IMG/VR virus record: IMGVR_UViG_3300005253_000166
Strand: one strand, 5' to 3'
Source of the DNA: a virus
DNA: 64,000 bases
Positions 3,812 to 52,100 of this stretch are shown piece by piece; within the stretch, counting starts at the first letter, position 1, and each line of letters begins with the position of its first letter. The notes below the pieces were generated by a model. The model was not told where the DNA came from. It ran no database searches and saw nothing but the letters and a program-made list of their open reading frames with translations. The position numbers were made by a program, and so were the translations under genes.

Positions 3812-4101
3812 ATGAAGAAGAAGACGAGGATGAAATAAGTATCAATCCAGATAAGGTTGATGAAGTAATTGAAGACGTATACAATCTATTATACAAGAAG
3901 AAAAAGACTAAAAATGAAGAAGCAAGATTGTGGATATTGTGTATGGTTGCTTTTGAGATGAAATCCAGAGAGATTAAGAAACTTTACAAGTATGTTTCTA
4001 ATAGGATTGCTAATAAAAATATTAAGACTGAAGAACAATTGGAGAAGGATGTAAATGCTATTTTGGATAGGACAATTATAATTACTAAGTCGTTGAGGTG
4101 A
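3808..4101 (+). CDS. hypothetical acidic protein
   Basis: ORF, translational coupling. Confidence 0.4.
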   Translation: MNEEEDEDEISINPDKVDEVIEDVYNLLYKKKKTKNEEARLWILCMVAFEMKSREIKKLYKYVSNRIANKNIKTEEQLEKDVNAILDRTIIITKSLR

Positions 4102-4266
4102 TTCAAAAATGAGAGTTAATGTTAGTGGGGGGATTTCGAGGAAGGAGATGTTGTTAGCATTGCAGAAAGCAGAGCTTACGATGAGGGATGAGGATTTGTA
4201 TACGGGTGACGATAAGATTGATAAGTTGACAAAGAGTAAAATGGCTTTAATGCTAGCGGGTGGGAA

Positions 4267-4482
4267 ATGAATAAGGAAGAATTTGCTCAAATTTTCGAGA
4301 AGACTGTTTTTATAGAGCATTTGACTAAGAAACAGCAAGAAGAGTTTTATGAGGTAGTTAAAGGACTAGTTTTAAAAAGGAAAGTGAGAAAGGTTTTAGA
4401 ACAATATCACAGGTTTATAACGTGGAGAGGTTTAACTGAAGATGATTATAATAAGATGTTAAAGGGATTGGAGTTGAGATGA
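4267..4482 (+). CDS. hypothetical protein
   Basis: ORF, ATGA overlaps both sides. Confidence 0.4.
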   Translation: MNKEEFAQIFEKTVFIEHLTKKQQEEFYEVVKGLVLKRKVRKVLEQYHRFITWRGLTEDDYNKMLKGLELR

Positions 4483-4913
4483 AACATAAGTTTGAGATTG
4501 ATGATACTGTTAGAGTTATACATTCTAGGAAAGGTGGAACTATTATTAGGCGATTTTACGATGTAGATAGTACTCCAGTGTATGCCGTGAGATATATTGG
4601 GGTAAATACTAGGTTTGAGTTGTTTGTTAACAAGTTTACGCCGTTTAAAATCAACGTGACGACACTTCTTCCTAAATTCGAGAAGATGAATTGGAGGTAC
4701 GATAAAATGATACAATGTCCGGTATGTAATGGAGAAATGGAGCATTGGGGTAAACATGCTGCTTGGAATACTGTGAGAAATACTAAGACTAAAACATTTA
4801 CGTGTGGAGGTTGCGGACTGAGAATGGTTTTTAAGAAGAATAATTATAAGCATAGAAGATTTATTGAGGCGAATTATGATGGAGAAAGAAAAGTGAATAT
4901 TGGAGGTAATTAA
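4479..4913 (+). CDS. zinc-binding protein (CPVCNGE...CGGCG); contains left copy of 54-bp inverted repeat
   Basis: ORF; CxxC pairs. Confidence 0.45.
   Translation: MKHKFEIDDTVRVIHSRKGGTIIRRFYDVDSTPVYAVRYIGVNTRFELFVNKFTPFKINVTTLLPKFEKMNWRYDKMIQCPVCNGEMEHWGKHAAWNTVRNTKTKTFTCGGCGLRMVFKKNNYKHRRFIEANYDGERKVNIGGN
4623..4676. repeat. 54-bp perfect inverted repeat, left arm
   Basis: reverse complement of 5559-5612 exactly. Confidence 0.9.
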
Positions 4914-4914
4914 A

Positions 4915-5337
4915 ATGAAATTAGAAGTAGTTATGAAAGTATTGATGGGAGGAAAGGAGTTTAAAGGAAAAGGTTCATTAATTTTATTTGGTAATAGAAA
5001 CAGAATATATTATAGGGATTGGGATTTGGACCAGAGAAGGGAAGATGCTATAAAACTAAATCAGAGACCAGATATATTGGCTGATGGATGGTGGAAAGAA
5101 AATTGGGAATTATTTGAGGAAGAAAAGAAACAGACTTTGAGTGACAAATGGATTAGAGCAAATGAAGATGAGGTATGCGGTGATATGAATAAATTTTATT
5201 TAAGAGATGTCAAACAATTCATTAAAGACATTAAAGAAGATATTAAGAAATTAGGAGTAGAATCTTCAATAGAACAAGAATTTAATAGAGAACTATTTGA
5301 AGTAATAGATAAAAGAGCAGGAAAGAGATTGATATAA
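4915..5337 (+). CDS. hypothetical protein (inside IR-flanked segment)
   Basis: SD ggaggt upstream of ATG at 4915. Confidence 0.45.
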   Translation: MKLEVVMKVLMGGKEFKGKGSLILFGNRNRIYYRDWDLDQRREDAIKLNQRPDILADGWWKENWELFEEEKKQTLSDKWIRANEDEVCGDMNKFYLRDVKQFIKDIKEDIKKLGVESSIEQEFNRELFEVIDKRAGKRLI

Positions 5338-5426
5338 AATGTCAACGTATTATTTGTTAGAGAAAAGAGTAGTTACTTGTAGTAAAAATTTGAAAGAGAA
5401 GTATGAGGAGAAAGGTTTCAAATTGA

Positions 5427-5774
5427 TTGCTGTTGATTCTGGATGGAATAATAGTCTTCAATTACGATAAAATGACTTCTGGTAGTGACCAATATGAGGA
5501 AAGTCGATGTGAGTATTGGGGAACTACGCTTTATTCTTGTCGGTGTCCGGGTTATAATTTTAGGAAGAAGTGTCGTCACGTTGATTTTAAACGGCGTAAA
5601 CTTGTTAACAAAGATGCTAATCATACTGACGAATATGACAAGATTTTAGCCTCTATCGTTTCGGGAATAGAAGCTACAACGTTTGTTGAGCAAAATTCTG
5701 AAGAACTACTTAATAAAATGAAGGTAATAGGCGATGTATTCGAGCGTCACGGAAAATTATATAAACTTGAATGA
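5427..5774 (+). CDS. hypothetical Cys-rich protein; contains right copy of 54-bp inverted repeat
   Basis: ORF. Confidence 0.4.
   Translation: MLLILDGIIVFNYDKMTSGSDQYEESRCEYWGTTLYSCRCPGYNFRKKCRHVDFKRRKLVNKDANHTDEYDKILASIVSGIEATTFVEQNSEELLNKMKVIGDVFERHGKLYKLE
5559..5612. repeat. 54-bp perfect inverted repeat, right arm
   Basis: reverse complement of 4623-4676 exactly. Confidence 0.9.
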
Positions 5775-5816
5775 AGATGATGTACCTAAAGGTCCATCAA
5801 AACTAGATGGATTAGA

Positions 5817-6521
5817 ATGAAGTTAAAAAAGAAAGAAGCACAGGAAAAATTGAAAGAGCTGTTTCATAAAGAAATGGAATGGTTAAGAGATGAGTACAAT
5901 AGAGTTTGTCCTGAGGAACACTGGGCTTTTCTGTTTACAAATACGGAATTACGTGTTATGGATGCAGACACTTTTTACAACGCTAAAAATACTGTGTCTC
6001 TAGTGCATGGTAAGAGTTACAAAGAGATAGAGATTTGGGAAGACCATAACTCTGATACTCGTAGCCGTGAATCACCTTCTGCTGTCTTTAAGATTAATCA
6101 GATGAACGAAGTTATAGCCAAGATTATTGAGTTGATGAAGATTCAACCTAAACTTCCTATTTATCGTAGGTATAAGGCTGATAATATACTTCCTTTAATA
6201 TCTGATTTATCGGGTGGAAAGCTTAAAAATATATTGGAAGATAGCGAAAAAGGTCGAATTAATATGGCTTTGTGGAAAGATATTCAGAGTGTAAAGAAGG
6301 GTGAGTTGAAGTGCTCGTTTTATAGTCTGGCTAAGAAATATAAGGTGTCGACAGCTACTGTGGTGGCGTATAATAAGCGCTCTGTTGAATGCCAAAAATG
6401 TAAGGAGATTAAGGTCTTTGATGCGAAATTATACAAGGAAATGCTCGAGAAATACGGTTCCAAGTCAAATTTTAACAAGGGTTTTATATGTAAAAAGTGT
6501 AACATTAACGTGTTAATGTAA
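5817..6521 (+). CDS. hypothetical protein with C-terminal zinc-ribbon module of the 'KFGS' family
   Basis: C-term ECQKCKEIKVFDAKLYKEMLEKYGSKSNFNKGFICKKCN aligns with modules in 886, 7988, 9763 ORFs. Confidence 0.5.
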   Translation: MKLKKKEAQEKLKELFHKEMEWLRDEYNRVCPEEHWAFLFTNTELRVMDADTFYNAKNTVSLVHGKSYKEIEIWEDHNSDTRSRESPSAVFKINQMNEVIAKIIELMKIQPKLPIYRRYKADNILPLISDLSGGKLKNILEDSEKGRINMALWKDIQSVKKGELKCSFYSLAKKYKVSTATVVAYNKRSVECQKCKEIKVFDAKLYKEMLEKYGSKSNFNKGFICKKCNINVLM

Positions 6522-6947
6522 CGTTTGGCGTTTTTGAAAGTTCAAAAATTTCGGAGTCAAAAGAACTGTCTTGGTGAGTTCGTGTTTATAAATTTTTCGT
6601 AAAGTTTAAATAAGATGAACTCAAAGATATATATTAAAAGAGCACAACGTACGTTGTTTAAATACGAAATTTTATATTAACATATAACTATGTTAATGTA
6701 AATACATATATATTTTTTTAGTTACGTTGGAATGTTGAAGGCTAATATATATATTAAAAGCTATAAAAGGTGTTGGAGGCATTGAATATGGATAAACAAA
6801 ATTATCATTATAGACTTAGCGATGAACAAATTGAAGAAATACTTAAGAAATTGGATAAAGAATTATTTCGACAGAAAGTAATTGGACGTGATAAATTACG
6901 TTACAAAAATATTTATTTTAAATGAAAATCGAGTCTAAATTGCACAA

Positions 6948-6989
6948 CAATATTTAAATAGATGAACGCATTTAGATATATTAGAGATA
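6948..6989 (+). promoter_or_regulatory. repeated upstream element R (TTTAAATA core), copy 1
   Basis: 'atatttaaatagatgaacgcatttagatatattagagata' ~95% identical to 7929-7970; precedes gene start. Confidence 0.5.
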
Positions 6990-7012
6990 AATATTATGTG
7001 AGGTGTGTAAAG

Positions 7013-7891
7013 ATGGCGGATGGCAAGACTTTTATTTTAGGGTGTGTTGTTGGTGGCACAGTAGTATCTTTAGGGAAGTGGTTATTTGCCTATTGGAGAG
7101 AGTCGGGAAAAACTTCTACAGGGATAATTATGAAAGTCATGGAAAAATATTTTGAATATCCGAGACAGGACGGTGACGAAGAATTTGATGATGATAGTGA
7201 TTGTGGTGATGAAAAGGTTCGGTATATGTTAGATGAGGAATATAATATTGTTATCAGTGTTAAGGAGATTGAAGATGCTTTAAAAGAGGAAGATTTGACT
7301 CCTTGTAAAGTTTGTAAATTTATTCAAAATTATGTTTTGGGTAGGAAAACTATTGTAATTATGAAAATCATGGAAAAGGATTTGGATTATACAAGGAGGG
7401 GTGATGGTGGTGATGGCGATTATGGAAAGGCTTGGTATATGTTAGATGAGGAATATAATATTACTGTCACGGCTTGTACAATTGAAGATGTGTTAAGAGA
7501 AGAGGAATTGACTCCTTTTAAAGTTGATAAATTTATTCGGAATTATATTAAGCGTATGGAAACCTTTAGACGCGGTGAAGCATTAGAATTGAAAAAGTCT
7601 AAATTATACCAAAAGGATGAGAAGTTAGTAGTAGAGCAAGAAGCGGAGCGACGAGTTTATGGCGAGGTAAAAAGTAAGAGAGCTCCTTTAACGCCTGAAG
7701 AACGGAAGACTGTCCATGATAAATATCACAATGAATGTGCCGTATGTAGTGGTACAGTAGGATTAGAAATACATCATAGAGATGATGATGCGACAAATAA
7801 TAGACTAGGCAATTTAATCTTATTATGTGTTGATTGTCACAAAGAAACGCGCAAAAAAAGCAAGACAAATACTCGGAAGAAGAAGAAGTAG
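7013..7891 (+). CDS. HNH endonuclease-domain protein with two internal ~60-aa tandem repeats
   Basis: C-term CAVCSG..LEIHHRDDDATNNRLGNLILLCVDCH (HNH); repeats 'YMLDEEYNI..EE.LTP.KV.KFI.NY' x2; track ORF starts 6962 inside repeat, internal ATG 7013 has SD gaggtg. Confidence 0.55.
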   Translation: MADGKTFILGCVVGGTVVSLGKWLFAYWRESGKTSTGIIMKVMEKYFEYPRQDGDEEFDDDSDCGDEKVRYMLDEEYNIVISVKEIEDALKEEDLTPCKVCKFIQNYVLGRKTIVIMKIMEKDLDYTRRGDGGDGDYGKAWYMLDEEYNITVTACTIEDVLREEELTPFKVDKFIRNYIKRMETFRRGEALELKKSKLYQKDEKLVVEQEAERRVYGEVKSKRAPLTPEERKTVHDKYHNECAVCSGTVGLEIHHRDDDATNNRLGNLILLCVDCHKETRKKSKTNTRKKKK

Positions 7892-13288: not shown

Positions 13289-14047
13289 ATGAAGAAAATA
13301 ATAATAGCTGGTTGTACAAGAACTAATTATATAGCATTTAATCTTATAAAGAAATATCCAGAATTTCTTTATGTTTTTGTGAATAAACAAGATACACCTA
13401 AACCTCAAAGAAAATATGAAAGTATTAAGAGAAATCTATGTTCAATATCTATTAATATGTTATTAAGACCAGATATTCTATTTAGGTTATGGTGCAAAGG
13501 AAGGAAAGAGAGAAAAGAAATGAAACATTTTGTAAAACCAAACTTATGTTGTCCCCCAAATTATTTAATCGTAAACAATTACAATAGCAAGGAATATGAA
13601 AACATACTTAAAGTTGAAGACCCTGATTTATTGATTGTTTTAGGCGGAATAATATTAAAACCTCAAATATTTAATAAAGGAAAACTTGGCTGTTTGAATA
13701 TACATTCTAGTCTTTTGCCTTTTGGGAGAGGAAGAGATGGTCCTTTTTGGGCTTTGTATTATAATAAACCTGCGGGGTTTACAGTACATTATATTACTGA
13801 ACAAGTGGATGCTGGAGATATAGTATTCCAGAAAGAAGTTGAAACCAAAGAAGGTGACACTCCATTAAGTTTGAGGAAAAGAATAGCTGATGAAATAATA
13901 AACTCTTTTCCAGAAATACTTGATAAATTTAAGGATGGAAAATCAGTAGGAAGAAAACAAGAATTTGGGTCATTATCTAATAAACATCCAACATTCAAGG
14001 ATAGATTTGAGTTGGAAATAACACCTTCCCAAAGTAAATCTGCCTGA
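13289..14047 (+). CDS. formyltransferase-family protein (PurN/Fmt/sugar N-formyltransferase fold)
   Basis: NIHSSLLPFGRGRDG (HxSLLPxxRG motif) and TVHYITEQVDAGDIVFQKEV match the Formyl_trans_N catalytic core. Confidence 0.6.
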   Translation: MKKIIIAGCTRTNYIAFNLIKKYPEFLYVFVNKQDTPKPQRKYESIKRNLCSISINMLLRPDILFRLWCKGRKERKEMKHFVKPNLCCPPNYLIVNNYNSKEYENILKVEDPDLLIVLGGIILKPQIFNKGKLGCLNIHSSLLPFGRGRDGPFWALYYNKPAGFTVHYITEQVDAGDIVFQKEVETKEGDTPLSLRKRIADEIINSFPEILDKFKDGKSVGRKQEFGSLSNKHPTFKDRFELEITPSQSKSA

Positions 14048-20753: not shown

Positions 20754-21269
20754 ATGGGATTAGCAGATTGGATTAAAGGTCATCAAGTTCTTGTTGGAGT
20801 ATTTGTAATTTGTATTTTACTAATCATAGTTAGTATAATAGTATTTATCATTATAAGGAATATTAAAAGGAGACTTATAGAGGGAGCATCGTTAGACGTT
20901 CCACCTAAGCCACCTAAAGCTATTATGCCGTTCTTTGAACGACTTAAGGAGATGATAAAGATAAATAAACCTGTGGAAATTAAATTCCTAGGTGAGACAA
21001 GACAAGGAATGTCTGCAACGGCATTACCTAGAATAATGGAGGCAATCAAAATGAAGACAAAAAAGATAAAATCACCAGTACCTGTGGCGCCTGCTCCAGT
21101 GGAGTCTGCACCTACTGTTGATATTAATGCTTTGACTGTTGAACAGTTGGAACAATTGTTATCTGAGAAGAAGTCGGCAGCTGCTGTACAAACAAAGCAA
21201 GCTACATTAATGGCTATGCCAAAAGAAGAACTCGTACAACTAATAATTGATAACCAAATAGAGGTATAA
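20754..21269 (+). CDS. membrane protein with Ala/Pro-rich linker
   Basis: N-terminal TM, VPVAPAPVESAPTV. Confidence 0.45.
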   Translation: MGLADWIKGHQVLVGVFVICILLIIVSIIVFIIIRNIKRRLIEGASLDVPPKPPKAIMPFFERLKEMIKINKPVEIKFLGETRQGMSATALPRIMEAIKMKTKKIKSPVPVAPAPVESAPTVDINALTVEQLEQLLSEKKSAAAVQTKQATLMAMPKEELVQLIIDNQIEV

Positions 21270-21448
21270 AATGGAAATAAAAGGATGTAATACAGGGTTT
21301 ATAGTTGAGTATAAAACTTCTGGGATAGCAGTCATGAACAGAATTTATTTTGGTAAGTGGATTAGATTAATTGAATGGTTAACAGAAAACAAGAAAAATA
21401 TATTAGAAGTTTATGATTCGGATGAGGAATAACTACACTTTAATACAT

Positions 21449-21525
21449 ATGCTTCCCTAAGACCTCGACGCGTCGGGGGATTGATAACGCGATAAGTTGA
21501 GCTTAAATGCTCGGGGAAGCTGCTT
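21449..21525 (+). promoter_or_regulatory. GC-rich structured element upstream of queD (candidate cis-regulatory RNA or operator)
   Basis: 8-bp long-range stem GCTTCCCT/GGGGAAGC enclosing palindrome CCTCGACGCGTCGGGG and hairpin GAGC-ttaaat-GCTC; sits 25 nt before SD of queD. Confidence 0.35.
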
Positions 21526-21549
21526 TATGCAAGAGGAGGTAAAAAAAAA

Positions 21550-21954
21550 ATGAAACTAAGTACAAGGGTATTTTTTGAGGCAGCGCATAGATTGTCAGAT
21601 TATGAAGGCAAGTGTAAAAGGTTACATGGGCATAATTGGATAGTTGACGTAGATATAGATACAGATAGAAAATTAGACAAAACTGGATTTATAGTGGATT
21701 TTGGTATTATAAAGGATATTGCTAAAAAGTTTGACCATATAATAGTGATGAAAGATACTGATGAGAATAGGAAATATTTAGAAAGTGTTCCAGAAGATTG
21801 GGTTCTATGGGTTAGTTTTAATCCGACTTGTGAGCATTTTGCAGAGTACTTCAGGAATGAAATTAGTAAACAGTGTAAGTTGCAACGTGGAGATGTGTCA
21901 ATTAAGGTTTATGAAAATTATAAACCAGAAAGGAAGTCTTACGCAGAAATATAA
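21550..21954 (+). CDS. queD: 6-carboxy-5,6,7,8-tetrahydropterin synthase QueD
   Basis: C-x3-HGH motif 'CKRLHGHNW', PTPS-fold length 134 aa; strong SD agaggaggt. Confidence 0.8.
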   Translation: MKLSTRVFFEAAHRLSDYEGKCKRLHGHNWIVDVDIDTDRKLDKTGFIVDFGIIKDIAKKFDHIIVMKDTDENRKYLESVPEDWVLWVSFNPTCEHFAEYFRNEISKQCKLQRGDVSIKVYENYKPERKSYAEI

Positions 21955-21975
21955 TTTTTTATGGGGTAATGTATA

Positions 21976-22179
21976 ATGTTCAAGGACAAAAAACAATTTT
22001 GCAGGTTTGCTGTTAAGTTTAATTCGCTTCCTTTGAAAGTTAAGCAAGCATTAGAACAAGAGTTTATTATCAAAGCAAAACAGTATTGTCGTCGTGAAGG
22101 TTTTACTCCTGATGAAGTTGTTATTACTATGGTTAAAGGTGATGATATTTCATTTTCGTTTATTGCTACTTTGAAATGA
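21976..22179 (+). CDS. hypothetical protein
   Basis: ORF within que cluster. Confidence 0.35.
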   Translation: MFKDKKQFCRFAVKFNSLPLKVKQALEQEFIIKAKQYCRREGFTPDEVVITMVKGDDISFSFIATLK

Positions 22180-22197
22180 GAGTCAGAGGTTCATATA

Positions 22198-22476
22198 ATG
22201 AAACTAGGACATTTATTTTATGCTGCACCTTTAAAACTATTTAAAGAGATAGCTAACTCAAACGGAGAAGTTATTTACGCTGCGTTAGCTGGAAGAACTG
22301 TTAATGTCTCATATGCCTATACTTCAAAGATAGTAAGGGAATTTGAAAAGCTTGGTTTGATTAAGAGCATTAGAGAATGGGGTAAAATACGTATCAAATT
22401 AAAAATTACACCATATGGAGAGCAGGTGTGGGAGCATCTTAACTTTATAATGGGAAGATTAGAAAATGGAGACTGA
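22198..22476 (+). CDS. winged-helix DNA-binding protein (putative transcription regulator)
   Basis: HTH-like 'AGRTVNVSYAYTSKIVREFEKLGLI'. Confidence 0.4.
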   Translation: MKLGHLFYAAPLKLFKEIANSNGEVIYAALAGRTVNVSYAYTSKIVREFEKLGLIKSIREWGKIRIKLKITPYGEQVWEHLNFIMGRLENGD

Positions 22477-22600
22477 TAAAAGACAATATAAAAAGAGACA
22501 TTGTAAGTGTGGTAACCTTTTAGTTTCGATAAGAGAGGTTACAGAGGAAAAATGTGACCATTGTCTTACGTTTAATAAGTAATTTTTAGGGTGAAATAAA

Positions 22601-23881
22601 ATGAAAATTAGTGAAGCTTATGTTTTTGGACGATGGCTTGGCGATGGTACCAAAGAGTCTTCTAGTTTAGAAATAGCTCGTTCTGAGTCGCGTATTGATG
22701 AAATGGAGACGATTGCTAATATGATACATAAACCTTTTTGTCATACTAACTCTAGTTGTACTAGGTTTCAAGATGCTTACAAGTTAAAAAAAGAATTTTA
22801 TAGGATATACTCAATTATTATCAATCAAGATGTTAAATTACTATTTAATATAAAAGAGTCTTTTGCTATTATTGCAGGGTTCTTAGAATCGGATGGGAGT
22901 ATTGATAATCATTCCAAAAACAAAATTAAAATAGTTTTGCATAATAATGATAAGAATCTTTTATATTTCCTACAGAATTTATTAAAGAATGCAGGTATTA
23001 TTTGCTATATTAAGGAGTCTTATGGTTTAAAAACTAATTACGGTCGAGACAAATGTTGTAGACTGCACATTAATAATAATCTTTGCTTATATTACTTATT
23101 TCATATGCTATTGCCTTATTTATTATCTAAAGATAAGAAGAATCGTATTAATGATTGGTTAAAATTCTATGATGATTATCATCAAAGTTTAAAATTGAAT
23201 TTTTCGGAAAAGTTTATTAGTATCGAAGGTGAAGGTCGTGACATGGGAAGATTAAAGCTTTTTTTGAGGGTACGTGGCTGTCCATTTTCGTGTGGCTATT
23301 GTGATACCAAATATTCGATTGGTTCTAGAGGTATGTCTAATTATAAAGCTCCTACTTTAAGGCAGATAATTAATGATGTAAGAAATTTTGGGTATTTCAG
23401 TGAAATAGAATTTACAGGAGGCTCACCAGAGTGGTTTCCTCAAAAAATAGGGTATTTATTAGTTTATTTCAAAATACATTTTAACAGTAGGATAACAATG
23501 CAATGTAGTGGTGGTATATATAGTGAAAAAAACCAAGCGTTATTTACTTTATCGGATATTAATAGTTTTGATTGTAAAGACCTACGGGAAAAAGTACCTT
23601 TTATTATCGATAAGCTTTATGTAAGAGAAAAAGATGAAATCAAGTTTTTGGTTTGCGATGATTTATCTTATCAGTTCGTAAAGAATAAGCTTAAGGAATT
23701 TAAAGATTTGAAATGCCAATTTATAATTTCTGTCGTTACTGAAGAAAATAAAGATGATTTGGAAAGTTTGAATTTGCTTATCGATAAAATAAAGCATGAT
23801 AATGATTTTCCCAAGCAAAATGTTAGATTAATGGTTCGTGAGCATATTTTATTATATGGAAAAGGTAAACGAGGGATATAA
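22601..23881 (+). CDS. queE: LAGLIDADG homing-endonuclease domain fused N-terminally to 7-carboxy-7-deazaguanine synthase QueE (radical SAM)
   Basis: two LAGLIDADG-type motifs 'FGRWLGDGT' and 'IAGFLESDGSI' in residues 1-190; QueE begins 'FISIEGEGRDMGRLKLFLRVRGCPFSCGYCDTKYS' (Cx3Cx2C); stop codons immediately upstream exclude an intein. Confidence 0.75.
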   Translation: MKISEAYVFGRWLGDGTKESSSLEIARSESRIDEMETIANMIHKPFCHTNSSCTRFQDAYKLKKEFYRIYSIIINQDVKLLFNIKESFAIIAGFLESDGSIDNHSKNKIKIVLHNNDKNLLYFLQNLLKNAGIICYIKESYGLKTNYGRDKCCRLHINNNLCLYYLFHMLLPYLLSKDKKNRINDWLKFYDDYHQSLKLNFSEKFISIEGEGRDMGRLKLFLRVRGCPFSCGYCDTKYSIGSRGMSNYKAPTLRQIINDVRNFGYFSEIEFTGGSPEWFPQKIGYLLVYFKIHFNSRITMQCSGGIYSEKNQALFTLSDINSFDCKDLREKVPFIIDKLYVREKDEIKFLVCDDLSYQFVKNKLKEFKDLKCQFIISVVTEENKDDLESLNLLIDKIKHDNDFPKQNVRLMVREHILLYGKGKRGI

Positions 23882-24109
23882 ATGATAAAACTTCCTAAAA
23901 GAATTCGAATCATAGAAGCAAGTGATATACGTTTGACTGAGAAGCGAGACCAAATCTATATTGAAAAAGAATCTGATTTTCTTTGGTATTTAAAGAGGTA
24001 TAACATCGAAGCAATTCTCAAACTCAAAAAACTTTATTATGTTTTTGAGGATACTGATACTATCATGATATATGACGATAGTAAGGCGTCGCCAGAGGTA
24101 CCACAATGA
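23882..24109 (+). CDS. hypothetical protein
   Basis: ATGA coupling both sides. Confidence 0.35.
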   Translation: MIKLPKRIRIIEASDIRLTEKRDQIYIEKESDFLWYLKRYNIEAILKLKKLYYVFEDTDTIMIYDDSKASPEVPQ

Positions 24110-24768
24110 AAAAAGAAAAGGCAGTATTAATTTTGTCAGGAGGGGTTGATTCGACTACTCTACTATACAATTTATTAGACCAAGATTACGAAGTTTATGC
24201 TGTTAGTTTTGATTACGGTCAGAAACACGCTAAAGAATTATTATGTGCAGCTGAAATATGTAGGAAGCTTAGTGTAAACCATAAGATTCTAAATTTATCG
24301 GTGTTGAATGATGTCGCTCCTAGTGCATTGACGCGAAAAGATATAGAAGTTCCAGAAGGTCATTACAAAGAAGAGTCTATGAAAGCAACAATTGTCCCTA
24401 ATCGTAATATGGTGATGCTTTCTTTAGCAACAGCTTATGCTATTAGTATCAAAGCAACAAAATTGTTTTATGGGGCGCATATTGGAGACCATGAAATTTA
24501 TCCGGATTGCAGGAAAGAATTTATTTATGCTATGAAGCAAGCTATTAAGCTATGTGATTGGCATCAAGTTGAATTAAAAGCTCCATTCAGACATCTAACC
24601 AAGGTGAGTGTTGTAAATCTTGGTAAAACGTTAAATGTTGATTATTCACTTACATATTCGTGTTATAAAGGGAGTGAGAAGGCTTGTGGCAAGTGTGGGA
24701 CTTGTGTTGAACGTCTCGAAGCATTTAAGATAGCTGGAGTAAAAGACCCTATTGAATATGAAAAATAA
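24106..24768 (+). CDS. queC: 7-cyano-7-deazaguanine synthase QueC
   Basis: PP-loop 'LILSGGVDSTT', C-terminal zinc site 'CGKCGTCVERLEAF'. Confidence 0.85.
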   Translation: MKKEKAVLILSGGVDSTTLLYNLLDQDYEVYAVSFDYGQKHAKELLCAAEICRKLSVNHKILNLSVLNDVAPSALTRKDIEVPEGHYKEESMKATIVPNRNMVMLSLATAYAISIKATKLFYGAHIGDHEIYPDCRKEFIYAMKQAIKLCDWHQVELKAPFRHLTKVSVVNLGKTLNVDYSLTYSCYKGSEKACGKCGTCVERLEAFKIAGVKDPIEYEK

Positions 24769-25108
24769 GAAAATAGCGATTGGTATAATAATACTTATGG
24801 GATTAACTTTACTAACAATATTTATTTACGATTACAACATAACTTACGGTGATTACAATGAATTGGTACTTGAATACAATTCCTTATTGAATGATTATAA
24901 CGAGTCATTAAATGCACCATGCAAAGGATGTGAGATGTGTGGTGCTGATATCAAATTTGGTGTAACTGGAATTTATCGGGCCAATGACTATTATTGTGTT
25001 TATGTTGAGAATAGAACAGAGGCTGAGATTAACAGAACAGAGATTCATGAACCGTGTCATCATTTTGTATATATGGACTATGAACACTTCTGCCTAGGCA
25101 AAGCCTAG
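24752..25108 (+). CDS. membrane-anchored Cys/His-containing protein
   Basis: N-terminal TM, CKGCEMCG..HEPCHH. Confidence 0.4.
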   Translation: MNMKNKKIAIGIIILMGLTLLTIFIYDYNITYGDYNELVLEYNSLLNDYNESLNAPCKGCEMCGADIKFGVTGIYRANDYYCVYVENRTEAEINRTEIHEPCHHFVYMDYEHFCLGKA

Positions 25109-25143
25109 GTATCTGGCCTTCTGTCTAGGAGAGCGTAATAAAA

Positions 25144-25635
25144 ATGTCAAATAAAAAGATTATAACGTGGAAACAGTTTCGAGAGCTTGTAGTACAACTC
25201 GAAAAGAAGATTGAATGGAATTCAAATATTAATGATATTTATGGGATTCCGAGAGGTGGGCAATATGTCGCTTTAATGCTTAGCGAAATTTCAGGAATCC
25301 CTTTAACTGACCATATTGATTCGAGGACATTTGTAGTTGACGATATTGCTGATTCTGGGAGTACTCTAGCCAGATTCCATGGAAAGGGGTGTGGAGTTGC
25401 TACTCTCCACGTTAAACCTCGTTCCATGGTTAAACCCCATTACTGGGTTGAGGAAACAGAGGATTATATTATTTATCCATATGAAGCTGCTGCAAATGAA
25501 GATGTTGAAGATAATATTCGTCGTATTTTACAGTTTTTAGGAGTTTATAAAGTGACTGATGGACAATTACTTTCGTTAAAACATAGTGTTCTTAAATTTG
25601 TTAGAGATTGGGGTGTTATAAATGGTAAAGTATAA
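25144..25635 (+). CDS. type I phosphoribosyltransferase-domain protein
   Basis: PRPP-binding motif 'VVDDIADSGSTL'; C-terminal tail 'EDNIRRILQFLGV' duplicates the FolE N-terminus at amino-acid level. Confidence 0.6.
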   Translation: MSNKKIITWKQFRELVVQLEKKIEWNSNINDIYGIPRGGQYVALMLSEISGIPLTDHIDSRTFVVDDIADSGSTLARFHGKGCGVATLHVKPRSMVKPHYWVEETEDYIIYPYEAAANEDVEDNIRRILQFLGVYKVTDGQLLSLKHSVLKFVRDWGVINGKV

Positions 25636-26857
25636 GGTTGATGAAAATTTTTTTGATAAGTGGTCAGGTGATATGGCTTATATTCTAGGGTTATGGTATG
25701 CAGATGGTTGGGCTATTGATACAAAACAAGGTTGCCAAGTTTGTATTGAATTGAAAGATAAATGTTTGTTAGAACAAGTTAAAATGAGAATGGGTGATGT
25801 CCCTATTAAAGAATTATGTAGGACTATTAATAGTAAACAAGTTCATTCATATTTATTGAGGTATTGTCGTAACGGGTTGTACAAGAGTCTGGTTTCTAGG
25901 GGGTATAATAATAAAGATGTTTTTCCTAGAATACCTGGTGAATACATTTCATATTTTATGAGAGGTTATTTTGATGGGGATGGAAGCTTACAGTTGCGTG
26001 AAAATGATAGAACGTTGCGCTTTTCGATATATGGTCCTAAACCTTTGTTAACTGAATATAGTGGTTTGTTGGCTAAGAAATTACAATTAAGTCGGGTTGC
26101 CCCTGTATTTAAAACTCAAGCAACACATGGTTTTAATTACGCCAAGATTACAGACGTTGCTAAAATTTTTCGATATTTATATTCAGATAATAGCATTGGG
26201 TTGTGTCGTAAATGTAGGTTGTTTGGTGAATGGTTTGAGACTGTCGGTTCAAAAGAACTTTTATCGAAAAGTACAATCCAAGATAATATAAGACGAATCC
26301 TTGAGCTTATAGGTGAAAATCCAAACAGAGAAGGTATCAAATATACTCCTCATAGAGTTGAAAGATTATATAATAATCTATTTTATGGATATAGAAAGAA
26401 ATTAAAAGTGATGAATGAAGAGGAGCGTAATACAGGATTTGATGAAAATATTATTCCTATCACTGTGTTTAAAAACGAGAGTGATGAGATGTTAATCAGG
26501 AAAGTCAATGCAGTGACGTTTTGCGAGCATCATATTGCAGTTACTCCATTAGAGGTTTGGGTTGGTATTATTCCTGATGAGACTCTAATGGGTATGAATA
26601 AGATTGATAAAGTAGTAAAGTATTTTGCTGCTCGTTTGCAAATCCAAGAACGTATGACGAATCAAGTTGCAGATTGGATTAGTGATAATATTGAGCCAAA
26701 AGGTGTAATAGTTGTAATCAAAGGTATTCATTATTGTGCTGAGTTGCAGGGTGATAGTGGAAATTTTATTACGAGCGCAGTTAGAGGTATATTTTTACAC
26801 CCAGATGCTAATAAGGACCCTAAATCCGAATTTTTAACTTTAATAAGGGAAAAATGA
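25622..26857 (+). CDS. folE: LAGLIDADG homing-endonuclease domain fused N-terminally to GTP cyclohydrolase I (FolE)
   Basis: 'ILGLWYADGWA' and 'FMRGYFDGDGSL' LAGLIDADG motifs; FolE part 'IRRILELIGENPNREGIKYTPHRVERLY...FCEHHIAV...IHYCAELQGD'. Confidence 0.75.
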   Translation: MVKYKVDENFFDKWSGDMAYILGLWYADGWAIDTKQGCQVCIELKDKCLLEQVKMRMGDVPIKELCRTINSKQVHSYLLRYCRNGLYKSLVSRGYNNKDVFPRIPGEYISYFMRGYFDGDGSLQLRENDRTLRFSIYGPKPLLTEYSGLLAKKLQLSRVAPVFKTQATHGFNYAKITDVAKIFRYLYSDNSIGLCRKCRLFGEWFETVGSKELLSKSTIQDNIRRILELIGENPNREGIKYTPHRVERLYNNLFYGYRKKLKVMNEEERNTGFDENIIPITVFKNESDEMLIRKVNAVTFCEHHIAVTPLEVWVGIIPDETLMGMNKIDKVVKYFAARLQIQERMTNQVADWISDNIEPKGVIVVIKGIHYCAELQGDSGNFITSAVRGIFLHPDANKDPKSEFLTLIREK

Positions 26858-27066
26858 AAGAAGAAGAATTTTTGAAAGAACATCCGAGTTTGAAGGGAAA
26901 ACTGTATTATTCAAGTATAGGAGAACCGCCACGAAGTGATTGGTGGACATTTATTAAATATATTCACGAAACACAATTAGACAAACAGAAAGTTAAGGAA
27001 GTTATTGAAAGGTTGGCATTTAAAGAATTGGCTATTGAATTAAAAAAGGAGTTAGGATTAGAATGA
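26854..27066 (+). CDS. hypothetical protein
   Basis: ORF, coupled. Confidence 0.35.
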   Translation: MKEEEFLKEHPSLKGKLYYSSIGEPPRSDWWTFIKYIHETQLDKQKVKEVIERLAFKELAIELKKELGLE

Positions 27067-27650
27067 ACAACAAAAATGATGGGCAAATGAAAGGCCAAAT
27101 TATTGCAGAACTAAACAAAGTCAAACGTGAAGGTATGCAAGACCTCATTGAATGGCTCACGGGGAGTGATTTCTTTATAGCGCCTTGTTCAGGCAGGTAT
27201 CATAATGCGTTTGATGGTGGGTTGGCTGAGCATAGTTGGAATGTTTTGAAGTTGCTAAGAGAAAAGAATCATAGGTATGCTTTAAATTTATCAGCAGAGA
27301 CTATTATAATTTGTGCTCTTTTACACGATTTATGTAAAGTGAATTTTTATGTAAAGCATGTAAGGCTTAGTTATTTGAATAATGAACCAGAATACTATTA
27401 TAAGATTGAGGAGAAAGCGTTGCCTTGTGGTCATGGAGAGAAGAGCGCTTTGTTAATCCAAAAATTTATGAAGTTAAGTGACCAAGAGATTGTTATGATA
27501 CGTTGGCATATGGGTAAATATGGTGACGATTTTAATATGTATCACGGGCCTGCGTTTTACAAGGCATTAGAACTTTACCCAGCTGCACTAGCTTTACATA
27601 CAGCTGATTTTGAAGCTGCAACATTCTTAGAGACTCATGGTGTGAAATGA
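27063..27650 (+). CDS. HD-domain phosphohydrolase
   Basis: H..HD motif 'ICALLHDLCK', upstream 'RYHNAFDGGLAEHSWN'. Confidence 0.5.
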   Translation: MNNKNDGQMKGQIIAELNKVKREGMQDLIEWLTGSDFFIAPCSGRYHNAFDGGLAEHSWNVLKLLREKNHRYALNLSAETIIICALLHDLCKVNFYVKHVRLSYLNNEPEYYYKIEEKALPCGHGEKSALLIQKFMKLSDQEIVMIRWHMGKYGDDFNMYHGPAFYKALELYPAALALHTADFEAATFLETHGVK

Positions 27651-27780
27651 AAATACTTGATAAACTAAGTCAAATAAGAATTGAATTTACGTCTAGTGAA
27701 GTTGACGCTCTCAAAAAGATATTGAGTAATCATAGTGGAGATTACGAGAAATTTGCGATGGAATTATACGATTTGATAAA

Positions 27781-28089
27781 ATGAAGATTACGATAAAACA
27801 GGGGTTCATTGAGTTTCGAAGGGTCGATAAACCAAAATATAGTCTATTTGAACTTGAGAGGGTAGAAGTTAATGAACAGTATCAAAGAAGGGGGCATGGT
27901 TGCAAACTTTTTAATATGATGATTGAAAAGATAAAACCATATAGAAAATTGTTTTGTACTACTCATGCTTCAAATAAAATAGCTCATAGATTTTATGAGC
28001 ATATGGGTATGAAGATGGAAGCAGTTTTACCGAATCATTATTATAGGGGTGAACCAGAGATAGTGTATAGTCAATACCCGGTGTCGTGA
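27781..28089 (+). CDS. small GNAT-like acetyltransferase
   Basis: 'EQYQRRGHGCKLF' acetyl-CoA binding-like motif. Confidence 0.35.
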   Translation: MKITIKQGFIEFRRVDKPKYSLFELERVEVNEQYQRRGHGCKLFNMMIEKIKPYRKLFCTTHASNKIAHRFYEHMGMKMEAVLPNHYYRGEPEIVYSQYPVS

Positions 28090-49140: not shown

Positions 49141-52100
49141 ATGAAAATGATTACATCTATAATGTTAATCTTATGTGGAACGATTTTGTTAGGTAGCATG
49201 GTATACTTTAGTGGTAATAAGCCATTGTTAGAAGGAGGTTTTAAAGAAATGGACACTAGAGTTTATGCAGGTAAAGGTTCCCCTATATCAGGAGATGAAG
49301 AGATTAAAATAAACCCTTACAAAACAAGATACACAGAAGATTACAAAGTTCTCAAAAAAACAGGAAACGAAAGTCTATTTGATGTTTCTTTTAACAAAAC
49401 ATCTGTTTTAGTTGCAAACTATACAGTTAACGATACTTATCCTAATGGCACTAATTATACTAGAAGAATAGTAAAATACAGAGAAGATACTATAATTTGT
49501 TTAGAGGCTGGATGGATTAATAAAAAGGTCTTGACTTATTTTTATAATTTAAACGGTAATATTACTGGTGTAAACAAAAACTATACTTATTCTGTTCCTT
49601 CAAAACTTTCTTTCTATAAAACCAATTCATTGTCTAAACAATCTGATTTATCTATGACACAAGCCAATGGACAGATTACAACAAGTCCATCTAATCCAAA
49701 GAAATTCTGCTATCAAGCAAATCCAGAGCAAGACTTTTATTTAAAGTTTGGAGATAACTCTGTAATAGTCATTCAAGATTCAAATATAGTTACAGACTCT
49801 TTATTAAGAAATGTAACAGCAGAAGGCAACTTCACACATCTTACTATAGATGATGACCCTGATGTTTATTTAGAGTTTGATGGTGATAATGATTATGTTA
49901 GTGTGGCTGATGATGACAGCTTGGATTTATCTACTAAAGCTACTTGGAGTCTTTGGGTAAAACGAGCCCAATATACTGATTTGGGAGGGCTTTTGAATAA
50001 ATATTTTTCTGCTGGTGGAAGGAGGTCATATACTTTGTTAGAAGCTAGTGGTGATAACACTGAAATTGGATTGTTTCTTTCTCCGAATGGTGCTAGTCCT
50101 GATGTATATTATACAACTAATGATTGTGCTCCTGTTGATGACGAATGGACATATATAGCAGTTACCTATGATGAAGGTTCAGCAATCTATTATAAGAATG
50201 GTGTGCAGTGTGATACTGATTCTTCTTCAGTAACCTCAATCCATCCTTCTTCTGAGCCCCTTTTGATAGGTTCTTCTTATGATAGTGACTTCAACGGCTC
50301 AATAGATGAAGTCCGTATTTATAATAGAAGCCTAAATGTTTCAGAAATTATAGAAATCTACAATTCTGGCAGGGTAGCAAATTCTTCATTACCTTCTGAT
50401 AATTTAACTTTATGGTTAAAGATGGATGAAGGTGTAGGAATATCAGCAGATGATTCAAGTGGAGAAGGAAATGACGGGACTTTAGTTGGTAATCCTACTT
50501 GGAGTACATGGGGATTGGGAGATAACTTAGTCGGCTATTGGAATTTTGATGGTGATAAAGTAAATACTCCATTAGCAACTTCTTATGATTTTACAAAGGA
50601 AGATAATGATGGGACAGGAGTTGCAGATGCTTTGGTTAATTCTACTGATTGTATGACTGGTTATGGAAATTGTTATCAGGGGGATGGTGTTGGCGATTTT
50701 ATCAATTTAGGAGACCCTGCATCATTGAGAAACTTCGGAAACTTAACCATTTCTGGGTGGTTTAATACAAGGGACAATACAACAAACTTTCAGGTGCTTA
50801 TTAGTAGACATACTACTACACAAGTATGGTTTATAAGGACAGACCCAGATAACTTTCAGTTTGATATTGAAACCGATGGGAGTCATCCACAAGTAAATAG
50901 CATTACACGTATTAAAAATAACATCTGGTATCATGTTGCTGGAGTGTATAATGGAACTGGCATGGGATTATATATAAACGGCGTTTTAGACAATTCGGGA
51001 GCAGCTTCAGGAACTATTGATTCTACCGCACAGACTGTTAGGATTGGAAGTAGAAATGGAGGTATGTTTATGGATGGTATGATAGACGAAGTAATGGTTT
51101 TCAATGCTTCTTTATCATCCGCACAAATCTTAGAAATCTACAACAACCAATCAGCAAGATTCAAAACAGAAGGAACACAAAAAGTAAGAGCAGTCAAAGT
51201 AACTAACGGAAGTACTTGGGATAATGGTGGAGATAATCGAGTTAACATAACTGTTGATTTTCAAGCAAATAAAAACTCAAATATCTCAGCAAGGATTGGA
51301 CAGATTAATCTTAGTGTTAATAATTCTGATTTATTATTTTATCTACCTTTTGAATGGAACGGTGCAGAAGATATTACTGGAAACGGATTTGATGGATTAT
51401 TGATTGGAGAAACTTTTATTAACGGTACAGGTTTAAATGACACAAGGGGAGCCCAATTTCAAGGGATGGATGATTTGATGAATTTAACTAACTCTGAAAG
51501 TTTAATTTTTCCAACAGGGGGATTCACTTTAGCGGTTTGGTTCAAAACTTTAGGGGGTGACTTAACAGCAAACCTTTTTGGTAAATATCCTACTACTGGA
51601 ATTGCAGGAAGAATCGCTTGTTTTATTTCAGGTGGAGATATTCTTTGCACTTTAGATGATGGGGCTTTACAGGTTGTTGCAGGGGGAGCTGTCAATGATG
51701 ATGAATGGCATCATATAGTATTATCTGTAAATGATACTAATCTAGCAGGATTTTTAGATGGAAATGTTTTTGCAGTAGATAGTCACGATAATACTTTGGT
51801 TACTAATACTGCAAGTTGGTCTTTAAGCTCAGCTATCCCAAATGCTCAATTTTCTTTGAATGGTTCAATAGATGAAGTAATACTTTTCAACAGAAGCTTA
51901 ACAACTCAAGAGGTTGTAACCCTTTATACAAGGTCAGCACAACAATACCACGAAGCATATTATACAGAATATCAAAACGTAACAGGAAACCCAACTAACT
52001 TTACAATAAATACAGAAGCAGACTTCTTATTTCCAGACTTTAAGTTTCATTCAGGTGCTGACCAGTTCTATACTCCTATAATTAACGGAAGTATGACTTT

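Follow-up and report, generated by a model that had tools for sequence, protein, structure and literature searches.

We analyzed a 64,000-nucleotide stretch of viral DNA, IMG/VR record IMGVR_UViG_3300005253_000166 (hereafter the window, meaning this stretch at its full length), in which two enzymes of the pathway to preQ0, the 7-deazaguanine precursor, are each encoded behind a LAGLIDADG domain of the homing-endonuclease type. Our main finding is that QueE and FolE are in-frame fusions of a single-chain LAGLIDADG domain to a complete enzyme core, that the FolE fusion appears to have arisen inside a formerly single gene for a phosphoribosyltransferase (PRTase) joined to FolE, and that the QueE fusion belongs to a conserved and apparently undescribed protein family with at least 16 members. 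These structural conclusions are firm; that both fusions are active nucleases and mobile is what we infer. The window is part of a viral genome from a marine sediment metagenome, and the genes concerned form a one-strand preQ0 cluster (21550-26857) in the order QueD, QueE, QueC, PRTase, FolE.

LAGLIDADG domains at the head of QueE and FolE

Each fusion is a single open reading frame (ORF) with the following parts:

22601..23881, plus strand: LAGLIDADG::QueE fusion ORF, 426 amino acids (aa); Shine-Dalgarno (SD)-like AGGGTGA before the ATG, in-frame TGA at 22592-22594
22601..23194, plus strand: single-chain LAGLIDADG domain of the QueE fusion, aa 1-198, from Pfam LAGLIDADG_3 and a fold match
23195..23881, plus strand: complete QueE core, aligned with QueE of loci L001 and L002 and with protein P0055
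25622..26857, plus strand: LAGLIDADG::FolE fusion ORF, 411 aa; in-frame TAA at 25619-25621, ATG overlapping the upstream ORF by 14 nt
25622..26272, plus strand: single-chain LAGLIDADG domain and linker (domain aa 1-~210), from Pfam, family alignment and fold
26279..26857, plus strand: complete FolE (GTP cyclohydrolase I) core, with the CEHH and H..C zinc/catalytic motifs that mark a FolE

The LAGLIDADG motifs of the QueE fusion are FGRWLGDGT (22625-22651, aa 9-17, acidic residue D15) and IAGFLESDGSI (22871-22903, aa 91-101, acidic residue D98), and those of the FolE fusion are ILGLWYADGWA (25682-25714, aa 21-31, acidic residue D28) and FMRGYFDGDGSL (25955-25990, aa 112-123, acidic residue D120). 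All four had been quoted in an initial annotation of this DNA, made from the letters alone, which proposed two double-motif LAGLIDADG domains fused to these enzymes; Pfam, AlphaFold2 with Foldseek, endonuclease-free homologues and five assemblies agree with that proposal. The profile comparison that it recommended places LAGLIDADG_3 (PF14528) above the cutoff of 22.5 bits in both ORFs, at aa 88-160 of the QueE ORF (E 8.8e-11, 42.4 bits) and in two stretches of the FolE ORF (E 1.1e-9, 38.8 bits); the second family that it named, PF00961, gave a sub-threshold match, for the QueE ORF only.

The remainder of each ORF is a recognizable enzyme. Radical_SAM and Fer4_12 match from aa 209 of the QueE ORF, whose core carries the CX3CX2C cluster motif as GCPFSCGYC and has the features of a QueE, with activity predicted. 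In the FolE ORF, GTP_cyclohydroI (PF01227) covers aa 219-408 (E 3.9e-41, profile positions 1-178 of 179); the core retains the nearly invariant columns of an alignment with 19 PRTase::FolE proteins, and 82.7-82.8% of its residues match the FolE parts of P0002 and P0003.

Structure prediction separates the parts clearly. The AlphaFold2 model of the whole QueE fusion has a mean per-residue confidence (pLDDT) of 83.8 and a predicted template modelling score (pTM) of 0.85, and that of the FolE endonuclease domain a pLDDT of 89.8. Foldseek matched the C-terminal half of the QueE fusion to Bacillus subtilis QueE (5th5, TM 0.73, E 1.4e-9) and the N-terminal half to PI-SceI, E-DreI and single-chain I-CreI, and its top matches for the FolE endonuclease were bI3 maturase, I-AniI, I-OnuI, I-Tsp061I and I-SceI; the probability against single-chain LAGLIDADG enzymes was 1.0, with E down to 8e-8 and 1.6e-7. 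Both domains have what defines a two-motif LAGLIDADG protein: a profile match above cutoff, two acidic-ended helices and a duplicated alpha-beta-beta-alpha-beta-beta-alpha fold, the last as predicted. By sequence, a search of the PDB gave a marginal match to I-DmoI (E 0.063) for the QueE endonuclease and nothing for the FolE endonuclease; the assignment was settled by fold comparison.

The two domains share only the motif in a BLASTP comparison and were therefore taken to be independent acquisitions, as the initial annotation had supposed. Local hidden Markov model searches of six-frame translations of the window found no LAGLIDADG ORF beyond these two. The FolE endonuclease aligns over its full length with 23 free-standing endonucleases (229-380 aa), and D28 and D120 are invariant across all 24 members of this family; the nearest of them, P0022 and P0020, lie in gene contexts unrelated to folE.

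Each fusion has its own SD-like site and ATG, as a free-standing phage homing endonuclease gene would, but the endonuclease part lacks a stop of its own and is read through into QueE or FolE. Upstream, the in-frame stops stand two codons (TGA 22592) and zero codons (TAA 25619) before the respective ATG, where the initial annotation had seen them. The endonuclease-free QueE proteins of L001 (213 aa) and L002 (202 aa) have an initiator Met that aligns with TTG 23195 of the window; no SD precedes this TTG and no start is conserved there in the homologues. Similarly, no in-frame start with an SD stands before the FolE core, and SD-like sites at normal spacing occur before the fusion starts only. 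Because the cores lack an SD or a usable start, QueE and FolE are predicted to be made only as fusions. No remnant of QueE was found upstream of the fusion in the window or in L003, L004 or L005.

A split PRTase::FolE gene and its repeated FolE start

The folE locus records how an endonuclease can enter a gene, and comparison with uninterrupted relatives resolves it into four elements:

25144..25635, plus strand: 5' fragment of a split PRTase::FolE gene, 163 aa; PRTase domain, linker, FolE N-terminal stub and ~30-aa read-through tail
25501..25545, plus strand: upstream (resident) copy of the FolE start, (DV)EDNIRRILQFLG, D-V-E-DNIRRIL-QFLG, frame 1, from codon comparison
25546..25621, plus strand: cassette leader, 76 nt, with SD-like GGGGTG; read in frame 1 it gives the non-homologous PRTase tail
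26273..26317, plus strand: downstream copy of the FolE start, (TI)QDNIRRILELIG, T-I-Q-DNIRRIL-ELIG, frame 2, contiguous with the rest of FolE

Uninterrupted PRTase::FolE proteins were collected (n=19), each encoded as a single ORF, the closest to the window's FolE half being P0002 (81%), P0003 (82%), P0004 and P0005 (294-317 aa), and all share the joint ...W..P.E....[IV]EDNIRRIL..IGENPNREG. A profile of the 19 aligns with aa 5-135 of the ORF upstream of the FolE fusion (E 3.9e-44), and its match reaches '...EDNIRRILQFLGVY', which belongs to the FolE part of the profile and to the first FolE helix (...EDNIRRILQFLG). Judging from these homologues, PRTase and FolE were ancestrally one gene, of which the upstream 'PRTase ORF' represents the 5' half. 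Members of the PRTase::FolE family are single ORFs of ~290-317 aa that begin with a type-I PRTase domain, and the window has two ORFs in different frames with a cassette between them; its PRTase and FolE are, by this comparison, a disrupted derivative of the family. The initial annotation had placed the insertion in the 5' end of a stand-alone folE beside a PRTase gene, and had the PRTase ORF end at '...LQFLGV'. Both points need revision, as one gene was split instead, and the ORF continues for 29 residues (YKVTDGQLLSLKHSVLKFVRDWGVINGKV) to a stop at 25633-25635. Taken alone, this tail has no match in the family profile. It was tried as a decayed continuation of FolE, since MAFFT set it under ...ENPNREGLLDTPKRV..., and this was rejected because the family profile is silent on it.

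The junctions could be mapped by comparison with the endonuclease-free alleles, of which L001 (5220-6173), L087, L088 (491-1366) and L002 were compared codon by codon, L088 coming from the window's own sediment metagenome. Homology to these alleles stops on the left after GGA G at 25545 and resumes on the right at ~26273, where the FolE ORF re-aligns at (S)TIQDNIRRILELIGENPNREG, so that the cassette is located 12-15 codons inside the FolE domain. Approximately 45 nt are present twice. The copies are ~60% identical at the nucleotide level, 8 of 13 compared residues are identical with differing codons, and the Smith-Waterman score of the protein repeat (52) was reached by 5 of 2000 shuffles. A repeat of the FolE start in other codons and another frame (25501-25545 and 26273-26317) had been noticed from the beginning and interpreted as the footprint of an endonuclease cassette, and the mapped junctions sustain both the observation and its interpretation.

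The additional suggestion that the second copy had been recoded was not sustained. The upstream copy is identical to L001 at 24/24 positions (25507-25530), and 13 of 14 codons of the downstream copy differ from L001; the endonuclease-free alleles L001, L088, L087 and L002, however, differ from one another just as much at synonymous sites of this segment. For this reason the codon differences were read as ordinary divergence, from which they are indistinguishable, and deliberate recoding was rejected.

Uninterrupted PRTase::FolE genes are frequent: 434 IMG/VR stretches encode a relative, and among the 80 loci that were kept (L007-L086) the match is uninterrupted in 80/80. No LAGLIDADG ORF was present in loci L006-L097, save the control loci L094 and L095. 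The folE locus is thus polymorphic for presence or absence of the endonuclease, a signature of mobility.

It was considered that the PRTase and FolE halves might come from different lineages. The window PRTase is 55-68% identical to P0002/P0003, which are 63% identical to each other, and its FolE is 83% identical to them, against 83% between the two. Distances of this order separate P0002 from P0003 as well, so both halves were regarded as native to the clade, and a mixed origin was rejected. Stand-alone forms occur naturally, PRTase in L004 and FolE in L090, L091 and L093; because these exist and PRTase::FolE is common, a split at this boundary should be harmless. We found no description of a PRTase::FolE fusion in the literature that could be searched. 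Tubercidin-type clusters contain PF00156 PRTases whose substrates are 7-deazapurine bases (bioRxiv 10.64898/2026.04.15.718813), and by analogy the viral PRTase might ribosylate preQ0 or 7-carboxy-7-deazaguanine (CDG) and not serve guanine salvage.

The QueE fusion family and a proposed origin of both fusions

A word-indexed search returned five full-length homologues of the QueE fusion (40-46% BLAST identity, 42-49% in alignment, 99-100% coverage), and an exhaustive profile search found 14 clusters at 50% identity that align end to end (profile ~1-9 to 442-444); together with P0052 and P0054, these clusters make up a set of 16 fusions. The endonuclease domain alone retrieved nothing in the word-indexed search, and a scan of IMG/VR with the QueE fusion found no relatives. 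All 16 fusions have the same junction and keep G.W.(G/A)DG and (S/T)DG with both catalytic aspartates; among them no start codon is conserved at the junction between endonuclease and QueE. Pfam confirmed both domains in distant members, with the clade-B proteins P0060 and P0067 above the LAGLIDADG cutoff. Whether built from the QueE core or from the endonuclease domain, the neighbor joining tree separates the same two clades, and pairwise identities of the two parts are correlated (r=0.71, over 120 non-independent pairs), ranging from 18 to 46% for the endonuclease domain versus 26 to 62% for QueE. As 16 proteins in two clades share the junction and their domains co-diverged, the QueE fusion appears to be old and not a recent invasion. 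No description of such a family was found in the literature that could be searched.

Contexts differ from one fusion genome to another: L003 carries it on a 117-kb contig, L004 in the order QueD, stand-alone PRTase, QueE fusion, QueC, and L005 as QueD followed by the QueE fusion. The QueE extension is not fixed, as the endonuclease-free QueE proteins P0055, P0057, P0058, P0065 and P0076 are interspersed between and within the fusion clades, P0076 inside clade B, so that queE too displays the presence/absence polymorphism of a mobile element. The initial annotation had held that an ancestral, non-mobile extension would speak against it; the ancestral part of that objection stands, given the common junction of at least 16 proteins, and the non-mobile part is not established, in view of the interspersed QueE proteins and a discordance with QueC. 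Indeed, among QueE-fusion genomes QueE is 46-62% identical and the adjacent QueC 34-37%, the reverse of the endonuclease-free pair L001/L002 (QueC 67%, QueE 50%), an incongruence that hints indirectly at mobility of the QueE module. A second indirect hint may lie in the comparison of the window with L001, in which PRTase is 55% and FolE 83% identical, but QueD, QueE and QueC only 25-38%. It is these two contrasts that lend indirect support to the earlier proposal that homing endonucleases mobilize the modification genes.

One QueE of the endonuclease-carrying subfamily, P0055 (L096 57-857), is endonuclease-free and starts with MKDEKNLQQRAKKMTLNISEIF. This start is loosely similar to the sequence that closes the endonuclease domain of P0050 (...KKKRLQQW...YQKKKINITEIF) and may be the scar of an endonuclease-domain deletion.

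The explanation that we favor, and hold to be probable though with reserve, is that two homing endonucleases of the free-standing type became the 5' parts of queE and folE, and that the domains cut endonuclease-free alleles, into which repair copies them. Comparison of the sequences makes it most likely that the domains originated from such endonucleases by loss of their stop codons. At folE, the ancestral state would have been the single PRTase::FolE ORF, into the FolE domain of which a cassette made of the 76-nt leader and the endonuclease ORF would have entered. The resident FolE start would have been left on the PRTase fragment, and a second, complete FolE start in frame after the endonuclease would have kept FolE intact. 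Such an outcome could follow if homologous repair of a break close to the ...LIG/ENPNREG... codons was one-sided, the right end having copied a donor endonuclease::folE and the left end having been joined illegitimately upstream of the endonuclease. Thereafter, both domains would cut endonuclease-free alleles in co-infecting relatives, and repair would copy the endonuclease together with the attached enzyme gene, as in intronless homing. The fusion would guarantee expression of the endonuclease and at the same time render the cassette harmless to the pathway.

Several points weigh against this explanation. Cleavage, target sites and homing are all predictions from sequence. In the searched databases, endonuclease::FolE occurs in one lineage only, so that the insertion history rests on a single allele, and the 45-nt flanking repeat is unlike the standard product of double-strand-break repair. 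The hints of mobility come from few genomes and from neighbor joining trees. Moreover, the long co-divergence of QueE and its endonuclease is at least as compatible with a domesticated host function as with a purely selfish element, and the fusion proteins could be processed or poorly active.

Domestication is the main rival, especially for QueE, and we consider it unlikely though deserving of serious attention: on this view the QueE fusion, and possibly the FolE fusion too, would carry a LAGLIDADG domain that no longer moves and that the virus retains for a benefit in DNA binding, regulation or structure. Selfish endonucleases are expected to go through cycles of invasion, decay and loss, and the QueE domain has persisted for longer than such a cycle: 16 proteins retain it at one junction although identity of the endonuclease domain falls to 18%, and it co-diverges with QueE. 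The pTM of the two-domain model suggests a defined arrangement of the domains, and the population sample has no single-nucleotide polymorphism (SNP) in the domain. Domesticated LAGLIDADG proteins such as WhiA have lost the catalytic aspartates, however, and these are kept in 16/16 fusions; nor would domestication readily account for endonuclease-free QueE proteins lying among the fusions in the tree, P0076 even inside clade B, or for a QueE module that is incongruent with the neighbouring QueC. QueE also acts on a free pterin-derived substrate, and no role of a DNA-binding domain there is known.

A quite different account, to which we give a low probability, treats the folE arrangement as a decaying accident, in which useful expression of FolE has ceased or the split PRTase has lost its function, and a host GTP cyclohydrolase I supplies the virus. 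It would explain why the arrangement is confined to one lineage, why the PRTase fragment has a non-homologous tail of ~30 aa and why FolE is without a start codon of its own. The FolE core, nevertheless, shares 83% identity with intact homologues and retains every nearly invariant catalytic column, and neither frameshifts nor stops are present. Among the population SNPs at 22579-26794, 7/8 are synonymous (4/5 in the PRTase ORF and 2/2 in FolE), the single non-synonymous one being S73N in the PRTase ORF, and 0 of the 8 fall in the endonuclease domains. The start that overlaps the upstream stop, with its SD-like site, is what translational coupling would be expected to look like, and FolE tolerates an N-terminal domain of ~125 aa in PRTase::FolE.

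Self-splicing elements were considered as well: inteins, split inteins of a fractured gene or ORFs of group I introns, any of which would leave mature enzymes without the domains. Inteins and introns often contain LAGLIDADG domains, FolE is interrupted by a true intein in another lineage (P0025), and there are fractured genes whose two halves flank a free-standing endonuclease (PMC2677866). In the window, in-frame stops lie directly upstream of both ORFs; Pfam finds no Hint or Intein_splicing match in either fusion, and the LAGLIDADG fold begins at residue ~5-16. The upstream junctions lack a Cys/Ser and the downstream junctions an HN followed by Cys/Ser/Thr, and the host sequence is duplicated, not interrupted, with the pieces of FolE in different frames. 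An Rfam cmscan of 21000-28000 on both strands revealed no intron RNA at E<=1, and flanking coding sequence directly adjoins both ORFs. Inteins, split inteins and introns are therefore excluded for both fusions, in accordance with what the initial annotation had said of inteins, and a self-splicing origin is left with almost no probability. Related material does contain true inteins: the 529-aa FolE P0025 has an insertion of Hint and LAGLIDADG_3 at the CEHH motif, and L004 has a PolA gene (4037-7834) with Intein_splicing.

An assembly artefact, by which a chimeric join of two strains produced the duplication and the fusions, is conceivable in principle for a metagenomic source in which a repeat could mislead an assembler, and is very improbable here, as five contigs from two runs (SRR1555748, SRR1555744) and three pipelines (ENA, JGI and Logan) agree at 99.5-99.9% identity with strain-level SNPs, the ~60% identical repeat copies are too different for a mis-join, and unrelated samples supplied another five QueE fusions. 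Across the five contigs the endonuclease::QueE protein does not vary. Strains within this metagenome are mosaic: L098 and L102 lack ~207 nt (window 26870-27076) holding a 70-aa ORF (26854-27066), and L100 differs in the QueD region (window 21284-21971).

It is also imaginable, although we regard it as a long shot, that endonuclease and protective modification act as a pair, virus DNA with 7-deazaguanine being immune and unmodified DNA of competitors or of the host being cut. On this speculative scheme, 7-deazaguanine would lack the guanine N7 that LAGLIDADG enzymes, which read the major groove, often contact, and the virus's own contiguous FolE start (26273-26340) would perhaps be immune. If true, the pair would be a gene drive comparable to a restriction-modification or toxin-antidote system, and would explain why the active site of the QueE fusion is kept through deep divergence.

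Relation to known systems and genomic surroundings

Homing endonucleases are known in three forms: as free-standing genes, as intron ORFs and as intein domains. The stop-less N-terminal translational fusion to a metabolic enzyme, present here in QueE and FolE, is a fourth.

The folE case is closest to intronless homing of the T4 seg/mob type, in which an endonuclease ORF without a promoter of its own lies in or next to a conserved phage gene. Phage endonuclease genes have been described that overlap the upstream ORF by 11-24 bp, and endonuclease insertions split nrdA of Aeromonas phage Aeh1 (mobE), T4 gene 39/60 (mobA) and gene 43 (seg-like) (PMC2988022). As in those examples, the endonuclease ORF has no promoter of its own, the start in the window overlaps the upstream ORF (by 14 nt), one gene is split into two ORFs, and relatives are without the insertion. 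Unlike the T4 endonucleases, which are of the GIY-YIG or HNH type and have their own stops, those of the window are LAGLIDADG proteins read through without a stop into the host enzyme. NrdA of Aeh1 has to be put together from its two pieces, whereas the window gene is cut near a domain boundary and the duplicated segment restores FolE. The fusions differ from the T4 and Aeh1 systems also in being known from sequence alone, their activity being predicted.

In mitochondria, LAGLIDADG and GIY-YIG ORFs are fused in frame to host exons ('core creep'), and in Tremella fuciformis a partial foreign gene replacement with N-terminal duplication followed intron/endonuclease-driven conversion (PMC8393795). 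The window shares with such fusions the translational joining of an endonuclease to host coding sequence, which brings it under the host's expression signals, and, with the second case, a duplicated or displaced fragment of the host gene, as mobility with co-conversion of the flanks would leave it. Mitochondrial fusions are usually to the upstream exon in spliced introns; here there is no intron and the endonuclease lies upstream of the enzyme. Unlike the organelle cases, moreover, the setting is a prokaryotic virus, and the fusion is predicted to be the sole route to the enzyme.

Both domains resemble I-AniI, bI3 maturase, I-OnuI, I-Tsp061I, I-SceI, I-DmoI/E-DreI and PI-SceI in their two acidic-ended helices and predicted duplicated fold. 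They are unlike the solved single-chain LAGLIDADG enzymes in that identity is 11-18%, that their size (~200 aa) is at the small end of the range and that they are joined to a metabolic enzyme. Inteins such as that of P0025, and fractured genes (PMC2677866), likewise place a LAGLIDADG domain within or between pieces of a conserved enzyme gene; the window differs from them in having neither Hint nor splice residues, in its upstream stops and in its duplicated host sequence. Finally, the cluster unites the same four enzymes, FolE, QueD, QueE and QueC, as other viral 7-deazaguanine (preQ0) clusters, from which it differs in that two of the four carry endonuclease domains and that FolE was ancestrally fused to a small PRTase.

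Together with its uninterrupted relatives, the folE locus offers a rare natural before-and-after pair, which suggests that a coding region can survive the entry of an endonuclease when the insertion falls at a domain boundary and the displaced codons are supplied a second time. The QueE family poses a testable question: does repeated homing from virus to virus sustain a selfish endonuclease, or has the domain taken on a function? If the fusions are mobile, viral 7-deazaguanine modification genes, an anti-restriction trait, may spread as endonuclease-driven cassettes. Practically, the domains are compact (~200 aa) single-chain LAGLIDADG scaffolds, whose candidate targets could be guessed from the endonuclease-free alleles.

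The other enzymes of the cluster are:

21550..21954, plus strand: QueD (6-pyruvoyl-tetrahydropterin synthase family), the cluster's first gene; Pfam PTPS, E 3.6e-23
24106..24768, plus strand: QueC; Pfam QueC, E 5.8e-71

QueD of the window is syntenic with QueD of L001, L002, L004 and L005, and relatives of the cluster in synteny are L001 and L002. The endonuclease-free cluster of L001 runs QueD, orf67, QueE, orf60, QueC, orf98, PRTase::FolE. In the window, two small ORFs that L001 lacks at that position lie between orf67 and the QueE fusion (22198-22582): one of 92 aa with weak winged helix-turn-helix-like matches (Rrf2, Crp HTH), and one of 38 aa (22466-22582) with a CxC...CxxC zinc-ribbon pattern. 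These may have come with the endonuclease::queE module. The ORF between QueC and PRTase (24752-25108, 118 aa) is conserved in L001 (4920-5216, 98 aa); both are hydrophobic near the N-terminus and contain an HExxH motif (HEPCH / HERCH) as well as a conserved ...YEHFC..., with no Pfam match. From these motifs, the 118-aa ORF could be a membrane-anchored metalloprotein of the cluster.

No DpdA/TGT-like transglycosylase was detected in the 64 kb with Pfam and PHROGs on the larger ORFs or with phmmer using L088 1412-2128, a further difference from other viral preQ0 clusters; such a gene may be located beyond the window or have diverged too far for these searches. This query, the unannotated ORF after PRTase::FolE in L088, had been supposed to be DpdA-like, which Pfam did not confirm, and the claim was dropped.

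Beyond the cluster, the window carries family-B DNA polymerase and primase-like genes, and the majority of its ORFs have no family match. A PHROGs scan of ten ORFs gave a match for the PRTase ORF only and none for the other nine. Against cultured phages (INPHARED), blastn of 21000-28000 yielded a single 84-bp match in folE, and tblastn of the FolE ORF matched 369 records in the FolE half only, with no close relatives; by these comparisons the virus is apparently very distant from cultured phages. The tested large ORFs of 38659-63334 (up to 1457 aa) had no Pfam match, nor had the PHROGs-scanned subset a match there; these scans left out the ORFs of 1413 aa (49141-53382) and 1447 aa (58991-63334). 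A scan for promoters and terminators showed no enrichment.

The plus (coding) strand has a very strong excess of G over C: at a GC content of 0.34, GC skew reaches 0.3-0.54 in the first 17 kb, against 0.24 for the whole window. The skew is visible at third codon positions too, nearly all ORFs of the window are on the plus strand, and the relatives L001 and L003 have a skew of 0.27-0.30. Both endonuclease domains share this composition and, for that reason, are not compositionally foreign.

Three further ORFs could be annotated. A sub-threshold, weak HNH-endonuclease match lies at 6962-7891, a formyltransferase-domain ORF (E 5.7e-17) at 13289-14047, and an HD-domain ORF at 27063-27650, adjoining the downstream end of the cluster. 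The formyltransferase and HD proteins could serve further base modification or nucleotide chemistry.

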